A stretch of 11,828 bases of DNA from the IMG/VR virus record IMGVR_UViG_3300035516_000805; one strand, given 5' to 3'. Numbering within the stretch: position 1 is the first letter of the stretch; the number at the start of each line of letters is the position of its first letter. Below, piece after piece: positions 1,573 through 11,828 of the stretch. Under the pieces are notes generated by a model, which made no database searches, was not told where the DNA came from, and saw nothing but the letters and a program-made list of their open reading frames with translations. The position numbers were made by a program, and so were the translations under genes. This DNA comes from a virus (Duplodnaviria > Heunggongvirae > Uroviricota > Caudoviricetes).

Positions 1573-2135
1573 ATTTAGGAATCGTAGATTTTGCAATATT
1601 TTCTGATGGAACTAAAATAGAAAATCCTAGATTTTATGAAAAATCAGAAAAGAAACTTGCTAAATTGCAAAGAGAACTTTCAAGAAAAACAATTGGTAGT
1701 TCAAATTGGAATAAAGCAAGAATTAAAGTTGCAAATTTACAGAAACATATTTCTAATCAACGAAATGATTTCTTGCATAAATTGACTACTGATATTGTAA
1801 AACAATATGATGTAATATGTCTTGAAGACCTCGATATAAAATCTATGAAAGAAACTGATTTAAAAATAAGAAATAAGCATATGAATGATATTTCTTTGTC
1901 AGAATTTTGTAGACAGATTACATATAAATCTCAATGGTATGGGAAGATAACATCTGTAATAGATAAATATTATCCATCTTCTCAGATATGTCATGTCTGT
2001 GGTTATAGAGATGGTAAGAAATCTGTGGATATTAGAAAATGGATTTGTCCTAATTGTCATTCTGAATTAGATAGGGACGAAAATGCTGCTATTAATATTG
2101 AGAATGAAGGATTAAGAATATTAGAAATAGCTTAA
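1533..2135 (+). pseudogene. tnpB: IS200/IS605-family TnpB, C-terminal half only (RuvC and Zn finger)
   Basis: The frame of ORF 1665-2135 is open back to 1533: KLCEKTGETVGIDLG (RuvC-I D), VICLEDL (RuvC-II E), CHVCG...CPNC Zn finger, DRDENAAINI (RuvC-III D). There is no start codon with RBS and no N-terminal HTH/WED/REC region. Confidence 0.92.
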
Positions 2136-2943: not shown

Positions 2944-3225
2944 GTGCTGAGAATGTTAAAATGGCATATGATACAAAATTATAATAAAGACATATTGGCA
3001 GAAGTAAACATTGAAAATGGTGTAAAACTTCCCGAAATTAATAGAAAATTATTATTTGAAAGACAAGATGGAAAATTATTTCTTGGTGAATTTCAAGAAA
3101 AGAAAGATGGAATTTTTGGATTCGTTACTTTTACTGGTGGAACTGCTCATATAATTGATGATATTGGACTAAGTGGCAATAATATCAATGGAGTTCTATG
3201 GACTTATTTTGATATAGCAGAATAG
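2944..3225 (+). CDS. Hypothetical protein
   Basis: ORF track. GAGGG RBS precedes GTG 2944 and ATG 2953. No confident family assignment. Confidence 0.7.
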   Translation: MLRMLKWHMIQNYNKDILAEVNIENGVKLPEINRKLLFERQDGKLFLGEFQEKKDGIFGFVTFTGGTAHIIDDIGLSGNNINGVLWTYFDIAE

Positions 3226-3228
3226 AAA

Positions 3229-3269
3229 CTTGGATAGTAGTTCTGAAAGGAACTACTATCAGTAGTGTT
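3229..3269. repeat. Hairpin module (possible terminator), inverted copy of 11702-11738
   Basis: GATAGTAGTTC-tgaaag-GAACTACTATC (3233-3260) plus flank AGTAGTGTT. Its reverse complement shares AACACTACTGATAGTAGT and ACTACTATC(C/T)AAG with 11702-11738. Confidence 0.8.
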
Positions 3270-3295
3270 AGTAGTCTTTAAATTTATTGGAAACA

Positions 3296-3400: not shown

Positions 3401-3796
3401 ATGAAAGAATATTTTACTAAGTTTAAAAAGATAATTGATATCTATATGCCAGACTACGGAGAAGGTGAGACAAAAGCTTCTCAGATTGTAACGGCTGTTA
3501 GCAATTTAATTTACAAATTTTATATTAATGGAGATGTTTTTGATAATACATATCATTTAGATGGAGATTTAAACGATATATCAAGTTATGCTAATTGGTT
3601 ATATGAATATGTTAATGAAACGGATGAAATTCTTTTAAAGATTTCTAATTGTTATAATTACAATGATTATGAAAATTTACTAAAAGAACTTGCAGATTTA
3701 CTACTAAATGAAGCTTATTTAGATGAACAAAATCAGCAAAATAAAATTGGTAGTATTTATCACTGTAACGGTAATTTTAAATTCAATTTTAAATAA
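3401..3796 (+). CDS. Hypothetical protein (start reassigned from 3377 to ATG 3401)
   Basis: GGAGG RBS at about 3386-3390 precedes ATG 3401. The Tyr/Asp/Asn-rich protein contains YMPDYGEGETKASQ...YKFYINGDVFDN. Function unknown. Confidence 0.75.
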   Translation: MKEYFTKFKKIIDIYMPDYGEGETKASQIVTAVSNLIYKFYINGDVFDNTYHLDGDLNDISSYANWLYEYVNETDEILLKISNCYNYNDYENLLKELADLLLNEAYLDEQNQQNKIGSIYHCNGNFKFNFK

Positions 3797-3819
3797 TTTA
3801 ACTATGATGAGGATATAAC

Positions 3820-4015
3820 ATGAATACATTAATCTTTTTCACTTTGCATATAATGACTTTGATAATCAGTGTGCTTTGGTTTGATATTGCTACAAGTCTG
3901 TATTCAATTTTAAATATGGTATTATATATTATAGATTATTTTGCAGTATTGTAGGATTAATAGTTTTACTACTTTTGGTTATCCATCAAAGAAAATCTAT
4001 AAAAATTAAATTTAC
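3820..4015 (+). pseudogene. Small membrane-protein gene, apparently frameshifted (missed by the ORF track)
   Basis: GAGGA RBS and ATG 3820 give a hydrophobic 44-aa ORF to TAG 3954. The -1 frame (open from 3885) continues KSVFNFKYGIIYYRLFCSIVGLIVLLLLVIHQRKSIKIKFT, a second TM helix with a basic tail, running into the IS-like end. Confidence 0.45.
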
Positions 4016-5935: not shown

Positions 5936-6246
5936 AAAGTCTTTTAATATTCTTTTAAAAATAAATGTTTTTCAATATTTTTTACTATTATTGTGTTTTT
6001 CTTCCTTTTAAAGTAATCTTTTTAAGTCTTAACCATTTAAAAGAACCTTTTAAAGTTTATCCTTTATTTGAAAACTAACTTAGTAAAGGTATAAGTAATA
6101 CTTTTAATGTTTAACACTTTTAAAGTTTTAACAAAAGGATTTACTGTCAATCTTAGTTGTTGCTGCTTAATTTACTTTAAAAGAGTATACTTATATGGTC
6201 TTAATTTTATATCGTTTTCAACTAACTCCGCCTTATTCTTTTATTG

Positions 6247-6383
6247 TTTATACCAATATAGTATGTTCTTTTTTATTATTTGTTTGACTTTAAAAGTCTC
6301 GTTCACCATTTGTTTTACACCTATATAGTGTGTTCTTTTTAAATTTCTTTATTTAATATTTATACAATATAGTGTGTGTTTTT
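6247..6383 (+). repeat. Three ~26-bp direct repeats resembling the MOBV oriT nick region
   Basis: TTTATACCAATATAGTATGTTCTTTTT (6247), TTTACACCTATATAGTGTGTTCTTTTT (6314) and TTTATACAATATAGTGTGTGTTTTT (6359). The core TATAGTGTGTT matches the pMV158-type nic sequence. Confidence 0.6.
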
Positions 6384-6408
6384 ATTGTTTAATAAATTTA
6401 GTTTGTAT

Positions 6409-6526
6409 CTTAGGTAGAGTACTATCTAAGTAATGGAAGTTTTGTTTTAATAAAAATTTCGATTTTACCGTAAATTCTAAAGAATTTATGGTGTAATGGA
6501 AATTCTGTAAAAACAGAACTTCCATT
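6409..6526. repeat. Palindrome cluster, partial copy of the 11560-11828 array
   Basis: 6449-6490 is identical to 11635-11676 (42 bp). The hairpin at 6495-6526 recurs at 11804-11828. The hairpin at 6409-6430 resembles 11711-11738. Confidence 0.88.
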
Positions 6527-6569
6527 TTACATTATTTATATATCAAATAAGATATTGGAGGATAATAAT

Positions 6570-8690
6570 ATGGCACAGTCAACAAGAGAAGGAATAGAAC
6601 AGGCAATATTATTGGAACAGCTATTGTTATTACCATTTAGTATTTGGGTAGACAGAGTAGCCCCGGATGTAAAAGAAAAATATAGAGATTTCTTTGAACG
6701 TATGAGTGTAATCACTGATAACGGCAGATATGACCCTTATATGTTATCTATTGATAATGACGAAATGGGTTTAGACTTTCAAAGTTTCTTAAAAGAAAAA
6801 CTTTTAGAGCATCCTGAAACACAGTTTTTAATTTTGGAAGATTCAAAAAATGACAGTGTTGTTGTAGGATGTAATGCACAAGGTAAGAAAATCGTTGAAA
6901 GTATACAGGCAGAATGGTTACTTCAAAAGAATAAGGCACGTCCAATGAGATTAACGTTGGATGAATTTAAAGATTTATATGAAGGACAGGAAATGGTGGA
7001 AATACCTTTAACGCCTGACCAAATGGATAAACTGATACAGACAAAGAACTTTTCATACGCCTTGGATGAAAAAACAGGAACAGCTACACTGTTAAAGTCA
7101 GACTTTATTCATTTGGAACATAATATGGATAATGACTTACTGACAATACTGTTACAGGCAGATGTTAATGCAGTAACGGCAAAGACACAGAACGCTAAAT
7201 ATGAAAATAATTTAAAGTATAAGTTATCAGAATACGTTGAAAATGAAGAAAATATTTACATTGCGCCAATGGGAAAAGGTGATTACTATATCCGTAAATC
7301 ATATGGTATGGTACAATTAATTGACAAACAGGGTATGCCGGTTAAAGGAATGGAAGTAAATGTTGCAGAATTTCATAAAAACAAAGATAGTATGTCTAAA
7401 ATGGAAAAACTGCAGTTTTATAACAAATTAAATACGATTTTTTCTCTGGTAAAGGACCCGATAAAGATTAATCAGGATGTGAAAGACAGAATCAGTGCAG
7501 AAAATAAAACTGAGAATAAAGACGTTCAGATTAAAGAATTTATTGAAGACCATTTATTTACCGGAGATATAACTGATTTTATCCAAGATAAAAATTATAT
7601 GATTAATCTTGATAGAATAGGTGCAGACTTTATTAAGGACGAACATGGTGTTGTCATTGATGTTGAATATGGCAGGGCTATTACAGAAAACGATTCCTTT
7701 ATCATTCAAAAAAATTATAATATCAATGAACTGGAAGAAGAGAATAAGTTTTTACAGGAAGTTTTAAACTCTGTAAAGGATAATCAATATGATTCCAAGT
7801 ATGAAGCCAGACTGCAGGAAATAATGCCGGGTAAAGTTGATGTAGATAAAATTAAAAATCAAATTTTTAAGAATACTGATAAAATAACAAGGTCAGAGCA
7901 GAACCAACATGATAAAAAAGGTATTTTTAAACTTCAAGAGGCAAACATTGACAGTAAAAACTTAGCATATTTAAAGAACAGTAAGAACTTTATGGATGCA
8001 TTAAGAGTCAGTAAAGACAATTCAATACAAAAGGAATATGTCATCAATGAAGTAAACTCAGACCTGTTTAAAGACCCTAAAGAAGAAGTCATTATGAGCA
8101 GACTTGTAGGAATTGGCAAGGACAGTATCATTTCAGAGGAGCGTGATAAGACCATTAATAATATTGTTAAGGAATATCAGAAATTGTTAATCAAAGAAGG
8201 TGCTTCCGAAGCACATTTAAACGAAGCAGTCAGTAAGTTAAGAAATGCTTTGGAAAATTCTGATTATGGTAAAATTTATACACAAAGAGAGATTATCAGT
8301 ACAATTGAAGCTATGAAAGATGAACTATGGACGGTCAATGGTTCTCATCCATTTGCAAATATTACTGAGCAGGAATTAACGCAGCAGTTTGACGCTATTT
8401 TAAAACAAAATGATTTGGATGAGGCAGTACAAAAGAGATGCAGTAAGGTTGAAGATGTAATTAAAGACATTTCAGACCGTATTAAGAAAGAAGACTGTCC
8501 AACCAGATTGCAGAAGTCAATTGATAAACGTATAAATGAAACCGAGCCAAGTAAAGATATGATAAAGGAAACAAAGGATAGTCTTGACAGGATTCGAACA
8601 ATCTATATTAAAAAGTATATAGATGAACATGGACTGAATGATGAAAATGCTAACCGTAACTATGGCGGAGAACGTGAAAGGTTTTCATAA
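6570..8690 (+). CDS. Large hypothetical protein (~706 aa; start reassigned to ATG 6570)
   Basis: GGAGG RBS before ATG 6570. Long, uninterrupted, charged ORF. No motif that I can recognise. Confidence 0.85.
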   Translation: MAQSTREGIEQAILLEQLLLLPFSIWVDRVAPDVKEKYRDFFERMSVITDNGRYDPYMLSIDNDEMGLDFQSFLKEKLLEHPETQFLILEDSKNDSVVVGCNAQGKKIVESIQAEWLLQKNKARPMRLTLDEFKDLYEGQEMVEIPLTPDQMDKLIQTKNFSYALDEKTGTATLLKSDFIHLEHNMDNDLLTILLQADVNAVTAKTQNAKYENNLKYKLSEYVENEENIYIAPMGKGDYYIRKSYGMVQLIDKQGMPVKGMEVNVAEFHKNKDSMSKMEKLQFYNKLNTIFSLVKDPIKINQDVKDRISAENKTENKDVQIKEFIEDHLFTGDITDFIQDKNYMINLDRIGADFIKDEHGVVIDVEYGRAITENDSFIIQKNYNINELEEENKFLQEVLNSVKDNQYDSKYEARLQEIMPGKVDVDKIKNQIFKNTDKITRSEQNQHDKKGIFKLQEANIDSKNLAYLKNSKNFMDALRVSKDNSIQKEYVINEVNSDLFKDPKEEVIMSRLVGIGKDSIISEERDKTINNIVKEYQKLLIKEGASEAHLNEAVSKLRNALENSDYGKIYTQREIISTIEAMKDELWTVNGSHPFANITEQELTQQFDAILKQNDLDEAVQKRCSKVEDVIKDISDRIKKEDCPTRLQKSIDKRINETEPSKDMIKETKDSLDRIRTIYIKKYIDEHGLNDENANRNYGGERERFS

Positions 8691-8713: not shown

Positions 8714-8754
8714 AACTTTAAAGGGATAACTTAAATAGTTATCCCTTTAAAGTT
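8714..8754. terminator. Bidirectional terminator between convergent genes
   Basis: Perfect 18-bp arms AACTTTAAAGGGATAACT-taaat-AGTTATCCCTTTAAAGTT, overlapping the stop of the minus-strand gene. Confidence 0.85.
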
Positions 8755-9334
8755 ACAATATTTTATATTGATTTTGGAAAAATTCCAAGTCTTTTTGCAT
8801 TTCTTTATAATCTGTAAGTAAATTGTAAAACGTGGCTTTTTTTAAACCGGTCCTATTTAAAAATTCTTTAGATGTAATTACTTTATTTGTCCACAGAATA
8901 TATAATTCTTCCCAGTTATCAGGATAGTTTATCTTATTTCGACCTGAATTTTTATGCCGATTAACAGGTAATTTAACAATATTAGTATTACTGTTTAAAA
9001 TAGTTTGTAATATAGTTGTTAATATAGCTTTATTTATTGGCTGAGATATTCCAAAAATGTATGTTGCTTCAATGCTGCAGATTATAAGATACATAGAATT
9101 TTTAATAAACCATTCTAATTGATTAGAAATATCTGCCTCATTTAATCCAAGTGAAGATGAATCGTTAATTATAAGAATATCATCAGAGGACATTTTATTT
9201 TTTAACTTTTCAAGTTCTCTAAAAGACCGTCTGCTTTCAGCGATAACAGTAATATTTTCTAGTTTATTAATATTAATAACATCCTTAAATGATGAAATAT
9301 CTTCTGTATTTTTTATATATATATAGGTATCCAT
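8753..9334 (-). CDS. Serine-resolvase-like protein with C-terminal HTH and degenerate catalytic motifs (start reassigned to ATG 9334)
   Basis: AAAGAGG RBS before MDTYIYIK. Resolvase-like length and layout. C-terminal GRNKI hook and TGLKKATFYNLL HTH are retained. YxRVS reads YIYIKN and DRLxR reads DSSSLG. Confidence 0.7.
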   Translation of the reverse strand: MDTYIYIKNTEDISSFKDVININKLENITVIAESRRSFRELEKLKNKMSSDDILIINDSSSLGLNEADISNQLEWFIKNSMYLIICSIEATYIFGISQPINKAILTTILQTILNSNTNIVKLPVNRHKNSGRNKINYPDNWEELYILWTNKVITSKEFLNRTGLKKATFYNLLTDYKEMQKDLEFFQNQYKIL

Positions 9335-9350
9335 AAAATTAACCTCTTTC

Positions 9351-11420
9351 TTAGAATATACCAAAGTATTTAGGCTTAATATGAGAAACTTTTTCAAATT
9401 CTTTCCGGTTTACGGATATTTTTGAAGAATCTCTTGTTGAAATGTTTTTTGCCTCTAATTCAGGCGGTAACGTATTAAACCATGACGTTAAACGTTTTTT
9501 ACTGTCCGCATCATTTCCTAATTCTATAATTACATGTGAATTTGTAAAAGTAAAGGCTTTTTTATTTTGAGAATAAAAATCACTAATCTCTTTAAAAGTC
9601 TCATCAAAAATAGAATGAGCGTTACTAGCATAATCATTATTCCATGTAAGTTCTTTCATATAAGAAGGAACAGTATAACCGTAATCTTCTAAAATTGATA
9701 TTATTGTTTTAGAAGATTTATTCATTATATCAGGATACCAAGAATCTGCACGGTCTTTACTGTAAATGATATAATCGAGTAATTTTTTAACTTCATCAAG
9801 CATCCTTCTGCTATATTCTCTGTAAAATCCTGTTCCAAGCCGTCTAATAATAGCATCACCTAACCCTTTTTTTGCACTTCTATCAGTTGTACTTGGTAAA
9901 GCTCCATCAAAACTTAAAAATACCATTCTTTTTCTGATAGGTTCATCGGGACTTTCTACATTATTACTTGCAAATGCAATCATTGGCTGCGTTTCAAGCT
10001 GAGTATCTTCACATTTATTAATATTTTTTATTGTATCTTTATTGTTTGAGAAAAATCGGTTATCTATTTCATCTATAAAAACCGGAATACCTTTACAGCT
10101 AACCTGAATATTTCTTATATCTTCTTTTTTACAGTCTTCTTTATTAATAACATTTAAATCTTTACCAGTCATCATTTTTAATATAGCACGGAACATAAAT
10201 GTTTTTCCACTATTTGACGTTTTAGACGTAGCCAGTAAAAATAATGGTAAACTATCATTAGAAACACCCATTAGTTTTGCAGTACAACGTAATTTGGCGT
10301 TATATGGAGAACAAAACATAGCATTTAAAAGTTTAAAATGAGTTTCTTTTAATCGGGGTTTATTACCAACAAAATCATCAAAATTATTAAAAATTCCTAA
10401 TAATTCTTCTATATCATTTTTTACTTCATCTTCAGTAGGATTAAGATTCATAGGGCTACCATTTAATTTTATTATGCCTTCATCATAATCAATTTCCATA
10501 CTAGGATAAGATTCTGTAGTATTTCTAATTTCAATCTTTCTTTTTTGAATTAGTTTTTTATTATTAAATTCTAATTTTTCTACGGTTTTAGGAGCAAATT
10601 CAATAAGACCATTTTTTGATTTTAAATTAATATTAGCAATCTTGTCATATTCTTCTTTAATTTTTTGATGTTCAATATTATATTGAATATTTTCTAAAAT
10701 TATATCATCATTTTGCATAGGATGTTGTAAAATAACAGTTTTACCTGTTTCTTTTACTTTTTTAATAATTGCATTGGATTCTATAAAATCATCAGTCTTT
10801 TTAGTAGTAATAATCTCAGCAGGAATATCCTCAGAATTTTCCCATGCCGTTTCAAAATCAGTTAAATATGACTCGTATGCATATTCTGTATCATCACATT
10901 CATAAAACTCCATATGTTCACCGTTCCAAGCCCTATTAGACATATTTGCTGATGTTGTAATAACTCTGGTTTTACCATTATCGGCTTTTAATAAATAAAT
11001 TTTTCTATGGTCGAGTATAAAAGTAGGTGTATGTATCACTAAATCACCGTTAAGCACCATATCTGATAAATATGGATGTTTTCTGACTGCATCCGCCGCT
11101 TCTTTAGCATTAGTTAAAGTTTCTATTAAAAATTCTGTTGTTTTAATATCTTTTTGAACTAAAAAAGAAGCCCCTAAAAGAATTTCACCATACTTGAAAT
11201 TCTTCATAATTTTATCAATAAAATTAATGTCATAAGAAAATGTAATTGCGTAAATAGTATCAAAGCCGGAAAATAATTCGTCTACTGTTTGATATGATAT
11301 ACCTGTCATTTTTGTATTATAACATTTTATCTGGTACTCGTCTGACTTTAAATTTCCATCAATTACAGTTAAATTATTAAGTGAATTACTGTCATCGAAT
11401 AAGCTTATTTGTTCATCCAT
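9351..11420 (-). CDS. PLD (HKD)-family nuclease fused to an SF3/AAA+-like P-loop ATPase (start reassigned to ATG 11420)
   Basis: GGAGGA RBS before MDEQISLF. N-terminal DHRKIYLL...TTSANMS...HMEF (a single HxK/SxN/E motif). C-terminal Walker A SNSGKT, Walker B PVFIDEI, motif C IAFASN and arginine finger IRKRMVFL. Confidence 0.82.
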   Translation of the reverse strand: MDEQISLFDDSNSLNNLTVIDGNLKSDEYQIKCYNTKMTGISYQTVDELFSGFDTIYAITFSYDINFIDKIMKNFKYGEILLGASFLVQKDIKTTEFLIETLTNAKEAADAVRKHPYLSDMVLNGDLVIHTPTFILDHRKIYLLKADNGKTRVITTSANMSNRAWNGEHMEFYECDDTEYAYESYLTDFETAWENSEDIPAEIITTKKTDDFIESNAIIKKVKETGKTVILQHPMQNDDIILENIQYNIEHQKIKEEYDKIANINLKSKNGLIEFAPKTVEKLEFNNKKLIQKRKIEIRNTTESYPSMEIDYDEGIIKLNGSPMNLNPTEDEVKNDIEELLGIFNNFDDFVGNKPRLKETHFKLLNAMFCSPYNAKLRCTAKLMGVSNDSLPLFLLATSKTSNSGKTFMFRAILKMMTGKDLNVINKEDCKKEDIRNIQVSCKGIPVFIDEIDNRFFSNNKDTIKNINKCEDTQLETQPMIAFASNNVESPDEPIRKRMVFLSFDGALPSTTDRSAKKGLGDAIIRRLGTGFYREYSRRMLDEVKKLLDYIIYSKDRADSWYPDIMNKSSKTIISILEDYGYTVPSYMKELTWNNDYASNAHSIFDETFKEISDFYSQNKKAFTFTNSHVIIELGNDADSKKRLTSWFNTLPPELEAKNISTRDSSKISVNRKEFEKVSHIKPKYFGIF

Positions 11421-11559
11421 AAAATTTTCCTCCATTATAAAAGTCTATAAACTATTGTTATAAACTATTATAATTTAAGTCTAAAAATAAATCAATATTT
11501 TTAGACTATATATATTATAACTTTTAATGGACGCTCTTTATAAATTTGACTTAAATCGA

Positions 11560-11828
11560 AAATTCTATTAAAATAGAATTTCCATTATACTACAAGTTCT
11601 AAAGAACTTATAGTTTTCATCGAATTTTTATTAAAATAAAAATTTCGATTTTACCGTAAATTCTAAAGAATTTATGTCAGTTGGAAGTTTTCTAAACTTC
11701 CAACACTACTGATAGTAGTCTGAAGACTACTATCTAAGGTGTAATTAAAATAGAAGTTCTAAAAGAACTTCTATTAAACAAAACATTATTTATAATGTTT
11801 TAGGGAAATTCTGTAAAAAACAGAACTT
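11560..11828. repeat. Array of about nine closely spaced short inverted repeats
   Basis: IRs at 11560-11581, 11594-11609, 11620-11648, 11657-11674, 11680-11704, 11711-11734, 11749-11775, 11780-11801 and 11804-11828 (cut by the window edge). Several share AA(A/G)TTCT...AGAA(C/T)TT. Confidence 0.88.

Follow-up and report, generated by a model that had tools for sequence, protein, structure and literature searches.

Several nucleases of the phospholipase D (PLD) fold are driven by ATP; NgoAVII and CglI, for example, need extensive ATP hydrolysis by a partner ATPase. To our knowledge, all of the characterized ATP-dependent PLD nucleases (SauUSI, MANTIS MtsD, and NgoAVII/CglI) use superfamily 2 (SF2) motors. 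In SauUSI (a type IV enzyme; PDB 7clg) and in MtsD, an N-terminal PLD domain that has a single HKD motif and requires dimerization is fused to the ATP-driven DNA motor. The stretch of DNA considered here (the window; 11,828 nt of Caudoviricetes IMG/VR record IMGVR_UViG_3300035516_000805, numbered from its first letter) encodes a protein with a similar nuclease domain and a different motor. Gene 1, on the minus strand at 9351..11420, specifies a 689-residue fusion of a PLD nuclease domain to an AAA+/SF3-type ATPase (Pfam PF27394, 'Aq_aa27' family), and gene 2, behind it on the same strand at 8753..9334, specifies a catalytically dead small serine recombinase of 193 residues. We favor, with a probability of about 0.55, the reading that the two form a self-contained, horizontally mobile cassette in which gene 1 is a defense nuclease effector and gene 2 is the repressor of the promoter.

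The PLD-fold nuclease domain of gene 1 spans residues 28–204 (10809..11339, minus strand) and carries a single HKD motif (H138, K140, D147, S157, and N159; 10944–11009). When 65 homologs are aligned, this HxK..D..SxN motif reads D137-H138-R139-K140, D147, and S157-A158-N159, with H138, K140, D147, S157, A158, and N159 invariant or conserved in at least 90%. The AlphaFold2 model of gene 1 has a mean pLDDT of 80, and VIA-align matches its PLD domain to Nuc (1bys) with a Z-score of 12.4 and a root-mean-square deviation of 2.9 over 134 aligned residues. The NgoAVII R-protein (4rct, Z 11.6), BfiI (Z 9.5), NucT, Zucchini, and SauUSI are further structural matches by the same method, the last through its PLD domain and not its motor; among Swiss-Prot models, Foldseek places NgoFVII first for this domain. 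By sequence, Pfam-A returns only a PLDc_2 match below threshold, a profile search of the PDB finds nothing significant, and no PHROGs family matches gene 1. Distant relatives have weak RE_NgoFVII Pfam matches, and some relatives bear the NCBI label 'restriction endonuclease PLD domain-containing protein'.

The motor occupies residues 307–685 (9366..10502, minus strand), where a ring-helicase-like ATPase of AAA+/SF3 type is followed by a C-terminal domain. Its ATPase motifs are invariant or nearly so in the same 65 homologs (G405-K406 of Walker A, D450-E451 of Walker B, N486 of sensor 1/motif C, and R496/R498 for the Arg finger), and their spacing is SF3-like, with about 45 residues between Walker A and B and about 36 between B and C. 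The best structural matches are SCCmec Cch (5dgk; Z 13.1, 279 residues aligned) and SaPIbov1 Rep (8tch; Z 11.7), followed by MCMs (Z 8–9), papillomavirus E1 (Z 8.2), poxvirus D5 (Z 8.1), E5, the African swine fever virus (ASFV) primase-helicase, and JCV large T antigen. Helicases of the Cch/SaPI Rep type are self-loading AAA+ proteins of the SF3 or MCM-like kind with a C-terminal winged-helix domain (PMC9371898). Judged by its modeled fold, the gene 1 motor is of the AAA+/SF3 class, SF3 or MCM-like, rather than SF2. The preliminary description of this DNA had read from the letters a single HKD motif, a full set of ATPase motifs, and an SF3/AAA+ rather than SF2 motor; the invariant columns and the matches to both folds, with Cch, SaPI Rep, D5, and E1 on the motor side, bear this out.

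Gene 1 belongs to a large family. More than 190 close homologs were found in a large protein collection, all with a precomputed PF27394 assignment, and an exhaustive profile search yielded 993 representatives of 50%-identity clusters; 308 scored below 1e-30. Fragments aside, almost every one of the 150 matches listed aligns over the full length. In Aquifex plasmid ece1, the PLD and motor halves appear to be separate genes, as aq_aa28 matches the PLD part of gene 1.

On the strength of these models, gene 1 is outside the class of SF2-motor PLD nucleases, though its working logic is similar. MANTIS MtsD is an effector composed of a PLD domain and an SF2 helicase (bioRxiv 10.64898/2026.09.23.753747). 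SauUSI and MtsD, like the cassette, are found in defense contexts; their motors, however, are SF2 helicases that work as dimers, whereas the motor of gene 1 presumably forms a ring. Neither the target-recognition domain of SauUSI nor partners of the MtsABC type are present in the cassette, where the partner is a dead resolvase. For the nuclease domain, the closest family is that of NgoAVII/CglI, BfiI, and NgoFVII, but the cassette has no B3-like DNA-binding domain, no separate SF2-like ATPase subunit, and no cognate methyltransferase, all of them features of those enzymes. For residues 307–685, C-terminal domain included, the best fold match is to the mobile-element AAA+ ring helicases Cch and SaPI Rep. 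Those proteins are replication initiators with adjacent iteron origins, primase partners, and no nuclease domain, whereas the cassette has a PLD nuclease and neither conserved origin-like repeats nor replication partners.

Gene 2 has the build of a small serine recombinase. Its AlphaFold2 model (pLDDT 86) comprises the catalytic domain, E-helix, and helix-turn-helix (HTH) of these enzymes, and a full-length Foldseek search is headed by the Sin, gamma-delta, and Tn3 resolvases (E 6e-6 to 1e-4). An hhalign comparison of the family profile with a genuine resolvase gives a probability of 97%, and sequence-profile searches return weak Sin/Tn3 matches in the PDB and a weak DNA-invertase match in PHROGs. 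When the two groups are aligned together, GY(V/A)RVST..Q and LDRL(G/A)R characterize true resolvases, whereas the gene 2 family has YIYxK followed by a 7-residue deletion, and SLxSLGLN. Across the family, the deletion removes the YxRVSTxxQ loop with its nucleophilic serine, R8 has become K, and DRLGR has become SLGLN, leaving Arg8, Asp67, Arg68, and Arg71 all substituted. Because the Ser loop is deleted and the catalytic Arg and Asp residues are substituted, recombination by gene 2 is excluded. The best-conserved part is the GR hook together with the HTH (GLKKATFYN; approximately residues 141–191, 8762–8914). The preliminary description had called gene 2 resolvase-shaped and devoid of catalytic residues, and a dead resolvase that keeps its DNA-binding parts is now confirmed at the level of both sequence and predicted fold.

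The same description proposed two co-oriented genes, a 16-bp gap with a ribosome-binding site (RBS), and a closing terminator, and the sequence agrees. The spacer (9335..9350, minus strand) holds, as read from the letters, the AGAGG RBS of gene 2, and a hairpin terminator with an 18-bp stem (8714..8754, unstranded) overlaps the end of gene 2 and is common to the operon and a convergent gene for 711 residues. Both starts differ from those in the list of open reading frames (ORFs). Gene 1, listed as 11435..9351, most likely begins at ATG 11420, five codons inside ATG 11435; GGAGG precedes the inner codon at the usual distance, and homologs begin at the equivalent MDE residues. Gene 2 was listed from TTG 9397 and begins at ATG 9334 after AGAGG; the resulting 193 residues are the size called on every related contig.

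Ahead of gene 1, the best promoter-like match of the region (10/12) is a sigma-70-type promoter (11467..11495, minus strand) with a −35 box TTGATT at 11490–11495, a 17-nt spacer, and a −10 box TATAAT at 11467–11472. The −35 box is enclosed by a candidate operator, O1 (11479..11506, minus strand), a perfect 28-bp palindrome of the form GTCTAAAAAT-N8-ATTTTTAGAC. The position at which homologs carry a second operator, O2 (11442..11466, minus strand), lies between the −10 box and the RBS and is taken up here by tandem copies of TAGTTTATA, with TATAGAC at the end. Read in about 30 loci, the 160 nt in front of gene 1 have a common layout: a 28-bp repeat with a −35 TTGAC in its 8-bp center, then TATAAT, a second copy of the repeat, and the RBS. 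The position and sequence of O1 are conserved in about 25 homologous loci, and O2 is found at −55..−15 in most. The copies, usually two, lie 40–43 bp apart and bracket TTGAC and TATAAT.

The operator is also specific to this promoter. A scan of 502 kb of loci allowing up to 3 mismatches gave 43 matches, of which 42 lie upstream of gene 1 at distances of up to about 100 nt. Five host genomes were scanned whole: the matches with up to 2 mismatches are all at the gene 1 promoter, and those with 3 occur at about the rate of a reversed-pattern control. At three more diverged loci (L041, L042, and L049), a diverged gene 2 HTH goes with diverged half-sites in which the GTCYAA outer core is kept. The palindrome was not found at gene 1 loci that lack gene 2, namely those of a sister clade and of Acetobacteraceae plasmids, and gene 2 alone among DNA-binding proteins always accompanies it.

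Site I of res measures 28 bp, the geometry of a resolvase dimer site, and TnpR represses tnpA/tnpR, its own promoter included, by binding res. Recombinase-type 28-bp inverted repeats that are promoter-specific and overlap the cassette promoter, over the −35 and after the −10, are what TnpR-like autorepression would call for. Given this precedent, the dimer-site geometry, and the constant association of gene 2 with the operator, gene 2 is most likely an autorepressor of the cassette promoter and the predicted binder of O1 and O2, not a targeting subunit. The dead resolvase had earlier been proposed as a subunit for targeting or self-protection; the operator pair at the promoter and the sister clades without a partner fit an autorepressor better. 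Gene 2 resembles Tn3/gamma-delta TnpR and Sin in its whole fold and in its presumed sites, 28-bp inverted repeats overlapping the promoter, but it differs from them in the deleted Ser loop, in a shorter region equivalent to the E-helix, and in being fixed beside a nuclease gene instead of a transposase gene. A parallel of another kind is offered by BrxR, CapW, and other WYL-type regulators, dedicated DNA-binding proteins with palindromic operators at the promoters of toxic defense effectors. Unlike those, the cassette regulator is derived from a serine recombinase, not from a WYL or winged-HTH protein, and is encoded downstream of the effector.

The two genes stay together wherever they were found as a pair. 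They are adjacent and in the same order in 16 of 16 species-representative genomes (Lachnospira pectinoschiza, other Lachnospiraceae, Campylobacter concisus and relatives, Peptoniphilus, Finegoldia, and Anaerococcus), and the pair is intact in every metagenomic contig with room for both. Among 2.9 million viral contigs (IMG/VR), gene 1 has 2 matches, both with the pair. Relatives at about 28% identity (L041, L042, and L049) keep a homologous gene 2, which is missing beside a sister clade of gene 1 (L046–L048) and beside the copies on Acetobacteraceae plasmids (about 22% identity); both retain an intact PLD-ATPase with no partner gene. The cassette is spread over Bacillota and Campylobacter, and its distribution is patchy, a full-length gene 1 member being present in 6 of 401 sampled Bacillota genomes. 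The co-occurrence of the genes elsewhere, on which the preliminary description had let its reading stand or fall, holds for all relatives checked, to identities as low as about 28%; this adjacency upholds the pair as a conserved, self-contained module, and no methyltransferase is a consistent neighbor. A resolvase encoded upstream on an Acetobacter plasmid was considered as a dead partner and rejected, as its catalytic motifs are kept; by sequence, it is probably that plasmid's own active resolvase.

The surroundings of the cassette vary, within types typical of defense islands and mobile elements. GmrSD, UvrD, and IS200/605 lie beside it in one locus (L032), Vsr and a DISARM-like PLDc_2/MZB/helicase gene set in Anaerovibrio (L036), and HsdR, HipA, Fic, and Zeta toxin in a Negativicoccus island (L013). 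SoFic, PDC-S01, and PDC-S04 are among the 73 neighbors of the species-representative loci, and partner-less relatives of gene 1 adjoin BrxL and ParDE. In Finegoldia, the cassette sits at a variable chromosomal hotspot among housekeeping genes (L010 and L011); in the window, it is cargo on a conjugative element. These surroundings and the patchy distribution are the signature expected of mobile defense or addiction genes and do not suit either a replication module or a classical restriction-modification (R-M) enzyme. Searched against PADLOC v2.0.0 with E values up to 0.1 admitted, gene 1, gene 2, and the 711-residue neighbor all went unmatched, so that, as had been supposed, neither cassette protein falls in a defense system named there.

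Two variations in the neighborhood were observed in passing. At the hotspot shared by the Finegoldia strains, a gene for a 1049-residue AAA_11/AAA_12 helicase lies directly downstream of the cassette in some (L011, 10676–13825; L027; L029) and is absent in another (L010). In L047, a partner-less relative stands between a BrxL-type gene (79–1239) and a small downstream ORF (3578–3820) with a weak, sub-threshold Lon_C match, an arrangement suggestive of an insertion within or beside the 3′ end of brxL in a BREX system.

We infer that gene 2 binds DNA, that gene 1 has nuclease and ATPase activity and assembles into a ring, and that the cassette serves in defense. Under this reading, two copies of the single-HKD PLD domain would have to come together to complete an active site, and gene 1 would assemble as a ring through its AAA+ domain, cut DNA, and spend ATP on loading onto it or moving along it, the role being defense against incoming phage or plasmid DNA. 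Gene 2 dimers would bind the 28-bp palindromes O1, over the −35, and O2, after the −10, and would thereby keep a potentially toxic nuclease tightly repressed, a job like that of the Tn3 TnpR repressor at res, without the recombination.

Several points weigh against this proposal. O2 is degenerate in the window, where nothing matches the operator there with up to 3 mismatches. Gene 1 has no recognizable sensor or specificity domain, which leaves the discrimination between self and nonself unexplained. The closest solved folds of the motor are replication initiator-helicases of mobile elements and fit a replication role as well. Besides repressing, gene 2 might also act as a subunit or as an antitoxin. 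The defense role is drawn from association with neighboring genes, and about half of the neighbors in the species-representative loci are ordinary housekeeping genes. Finally, our literature search found no paper on the gene 1 family or reporting an activity of either protein, and none on a dead-resolvase regulator of a nuclease or on this architecture; the proteins in the papers on the END nuclease, Druantia DruE/DruH, DefensePredictor, and MANTIS differ from those of the cassette.

A more ambitious version of the defense proposal, which we put forward tentatively, is that the cassette represents a new class of methylase-free ATP-dependent defense nucleases in which a replicative-helicase-type ring bearing six PLD domains would take in foreign DNA and cleave it. 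The domesticated resolvase would then do more than repress passively: an encounter with invader DNA or recombinases would make it let go of the promoter or permit the ring to load.

The alternative that survives best, although we consider it unlikely, is a toxin-antitoxin or addiction module that stabilizes plasmids and islands, with gene 1 as nuclease toxin and gene 2 as both contact antitoxin and repressor. An apparently autorepressed promoter, with the repressor encoded by the small downstream gene, is in keeping with such a module, as are the location of the cassette on a conjugative plasmid here and its company elsewhere (HipA, Zeta, ParDE, Fic, and other toxin-antitoxin genes). However, a toxin that must be neutralized is hard to square with the sister clades and Acetobacteraceae plasmids, in which the PLD-ATPase persists intact and unaccompanied; the cassette also occupies stable chromosomal hotspots between housekeeping genes, and a motor-nuclease of 689 residues is atypical as a type II toxin.

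A role in replication or resolution depends largely on the palindromes next to the genes. The preliminary description had included about 400 bp of upstream palindromic DNA in the locus. The array is real: 408 nt contain 8 perfect palindromes whose arms measure 8 nt or more, whereas 300 shuffles yielded 0.28 on average and never more than 2. It is, however, no part of the system, since the matching 450 nt upstream have 0–2 palindromes in 20 homologous loci. Only one palindrome of the array, the 28-bp O1, belongs to the gene pair. The types GTTGGAAGTTCT..AGAACTTCCAAC and GATAGTAGTTCT..AGAACTACTATC recur in other intergenic regions of the host element, several of which hold clusters of dispersed 22–27-bp perfect palindromes with cores AAGTTCT..AGAACTT and AGTAGT..ACTACT. 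This family lies at 11507–11828, 6433–6540, and 3252–3282 of the window and at 2443–2977, 3252–3280, and 16075–16102 of L006, an identical copy of the element. Its members look like repetitive extragenic palindromes (REP) or bacterial interspersed mosaic elements (BIME) unrelated to the gene pair. Because the array is absent at the homologous loci and its family recurs elsewhere in the element, it belongs to the conjugative host element and not to the cassette, and we rejected it as an origin, res site, or nuclease target as it is element-specific.

A Cch/SaPI Rep-type initiator-helicase that nicks via its PLD domain at a palindromic origin, with gene 2 as an accessory binding the origin or res, is for these reasons quite improbable, and the idea of a replication or resolution protein acting on the adjacent palindromes loses its basis now that they prove to be nonconserved repeats of the host element. 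PLD enzymes act through a covalent phospho-histidine intermediate, a chemistry that would suit such a role, as would the plasmid-like element on which the window lies and the best solved matches of the motor, the self-loading replicative helicases Cch and SaPIbov1 Rep, which read iterons next to rep via the C-terminal winged-helix domain (PMC9371898). Yet the only conserved cis element is the operator pair overlapping the promoter; no primase, integrase, or other element backbone is linked to the pair, and the Finegoldia copy sits between housekeeping genes. The absence of a PHROGs match for gene 1 and its scarcity in viral contigs also speak against this role. The iteron-like repeats of this element, moreover, stand apart, near the relaxase gene.

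An ordinary R-M endonuclease with its methyltransferase just outside the window is hardly credible. In its favor, the nearest relatives of the PLD domain are restriction enzymes (NgoAVII/NgoFVII, BfiI, and SauUSI), some relatives carry the restriction label, and methyltransferases turn up in two loci, one of the D12 kind about 1.1 kb upstream in L003 and one of the N6_N4 kind nearby in L032. Against it, methyltransferases make up only 2 of the 73 neighbors of species-representative loci, those seen are of different families and orientations and not homologous to one another, and the identical element read past position 11828 (L001 and L006) has none within about 8 kb on either side, in line with the preliminary description, which had no methylase in view.

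What lies past 11828 in the identical element is a set of hexapeptide-repeat (beta-solenoid) proteins and conjugation genes. Just beyond the window end, at 3161–4668 of L001, two paralogous beta-solenoid proteins of the hexapeptide/YdcK type (234 and 259 residues) are encoded divergently from the cassette. The host element is conjugative and plasmid-like, with type IV secretion genes (L006), a MobV relaxase, Fic, and SNase on a 58.5-kb contig. A megablast of the region against PLSDB gave no match, and the ends of the window show no terminal overlap, so the window itself is not a closed circle. At the end of the near-identical contig L001, the palindromic region recurs directly after the gene for the 711-residue protein (10024–10151 against 4717–4845 of L001, the latter equivalent to 11700–11828 of the window); the resulting 5307-bp period could reflect recombination between repeat clusters, giving a circle or tandem duplication, or an assembly artifact caused by the repeats.

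Three further features of the window are recorded here. The convergent 711-residue ORF (6555–8690, plus strand) has no Pfam, NCBIfam, PADLOC, or PHROG match and occurs solely in identical copies of this element, which is why we rejected it as a third component of the cassette. Between that gene and the MobV relaxase gene is a 750-bp noncoding stretch in which three direct repeats of about 19 nt (AATATAGTGTGTTCTTTTT-like), spaced 46–66 bp apart, occupy 6240–6390 alongside many CTTTTAAAAG-type motifs; this is possibly the oriV/oriT of the element. At 1665–2135 (plus strand), a 156-residue C-terminal piece of a TnpB/Cas12f-like protein (OrfB_IS605 and TNB domains) is apparently a truncated IS605-family remnant.

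Overall, a large family catalogued only as PF27394 joins a PLD nuclease to a ring-helicase motor of the kind used by replication proteins of mobile elements, from which the motor seems borrowed. The REP-like palindromes of the host plasmid, which would otherwise be misleading for annotation, can now be kept apart from the cassette. The operator offers a directly testable handle and a sequence signature for finding the cassette in genomes. If gene 1 is a defense enzyme, the cassette adds a mechanistically distinct and compact system with a single effector, and gene 2 would plainly exemplify how a site-specific recombinase can be domesticated as a switch dedicated to transcription.

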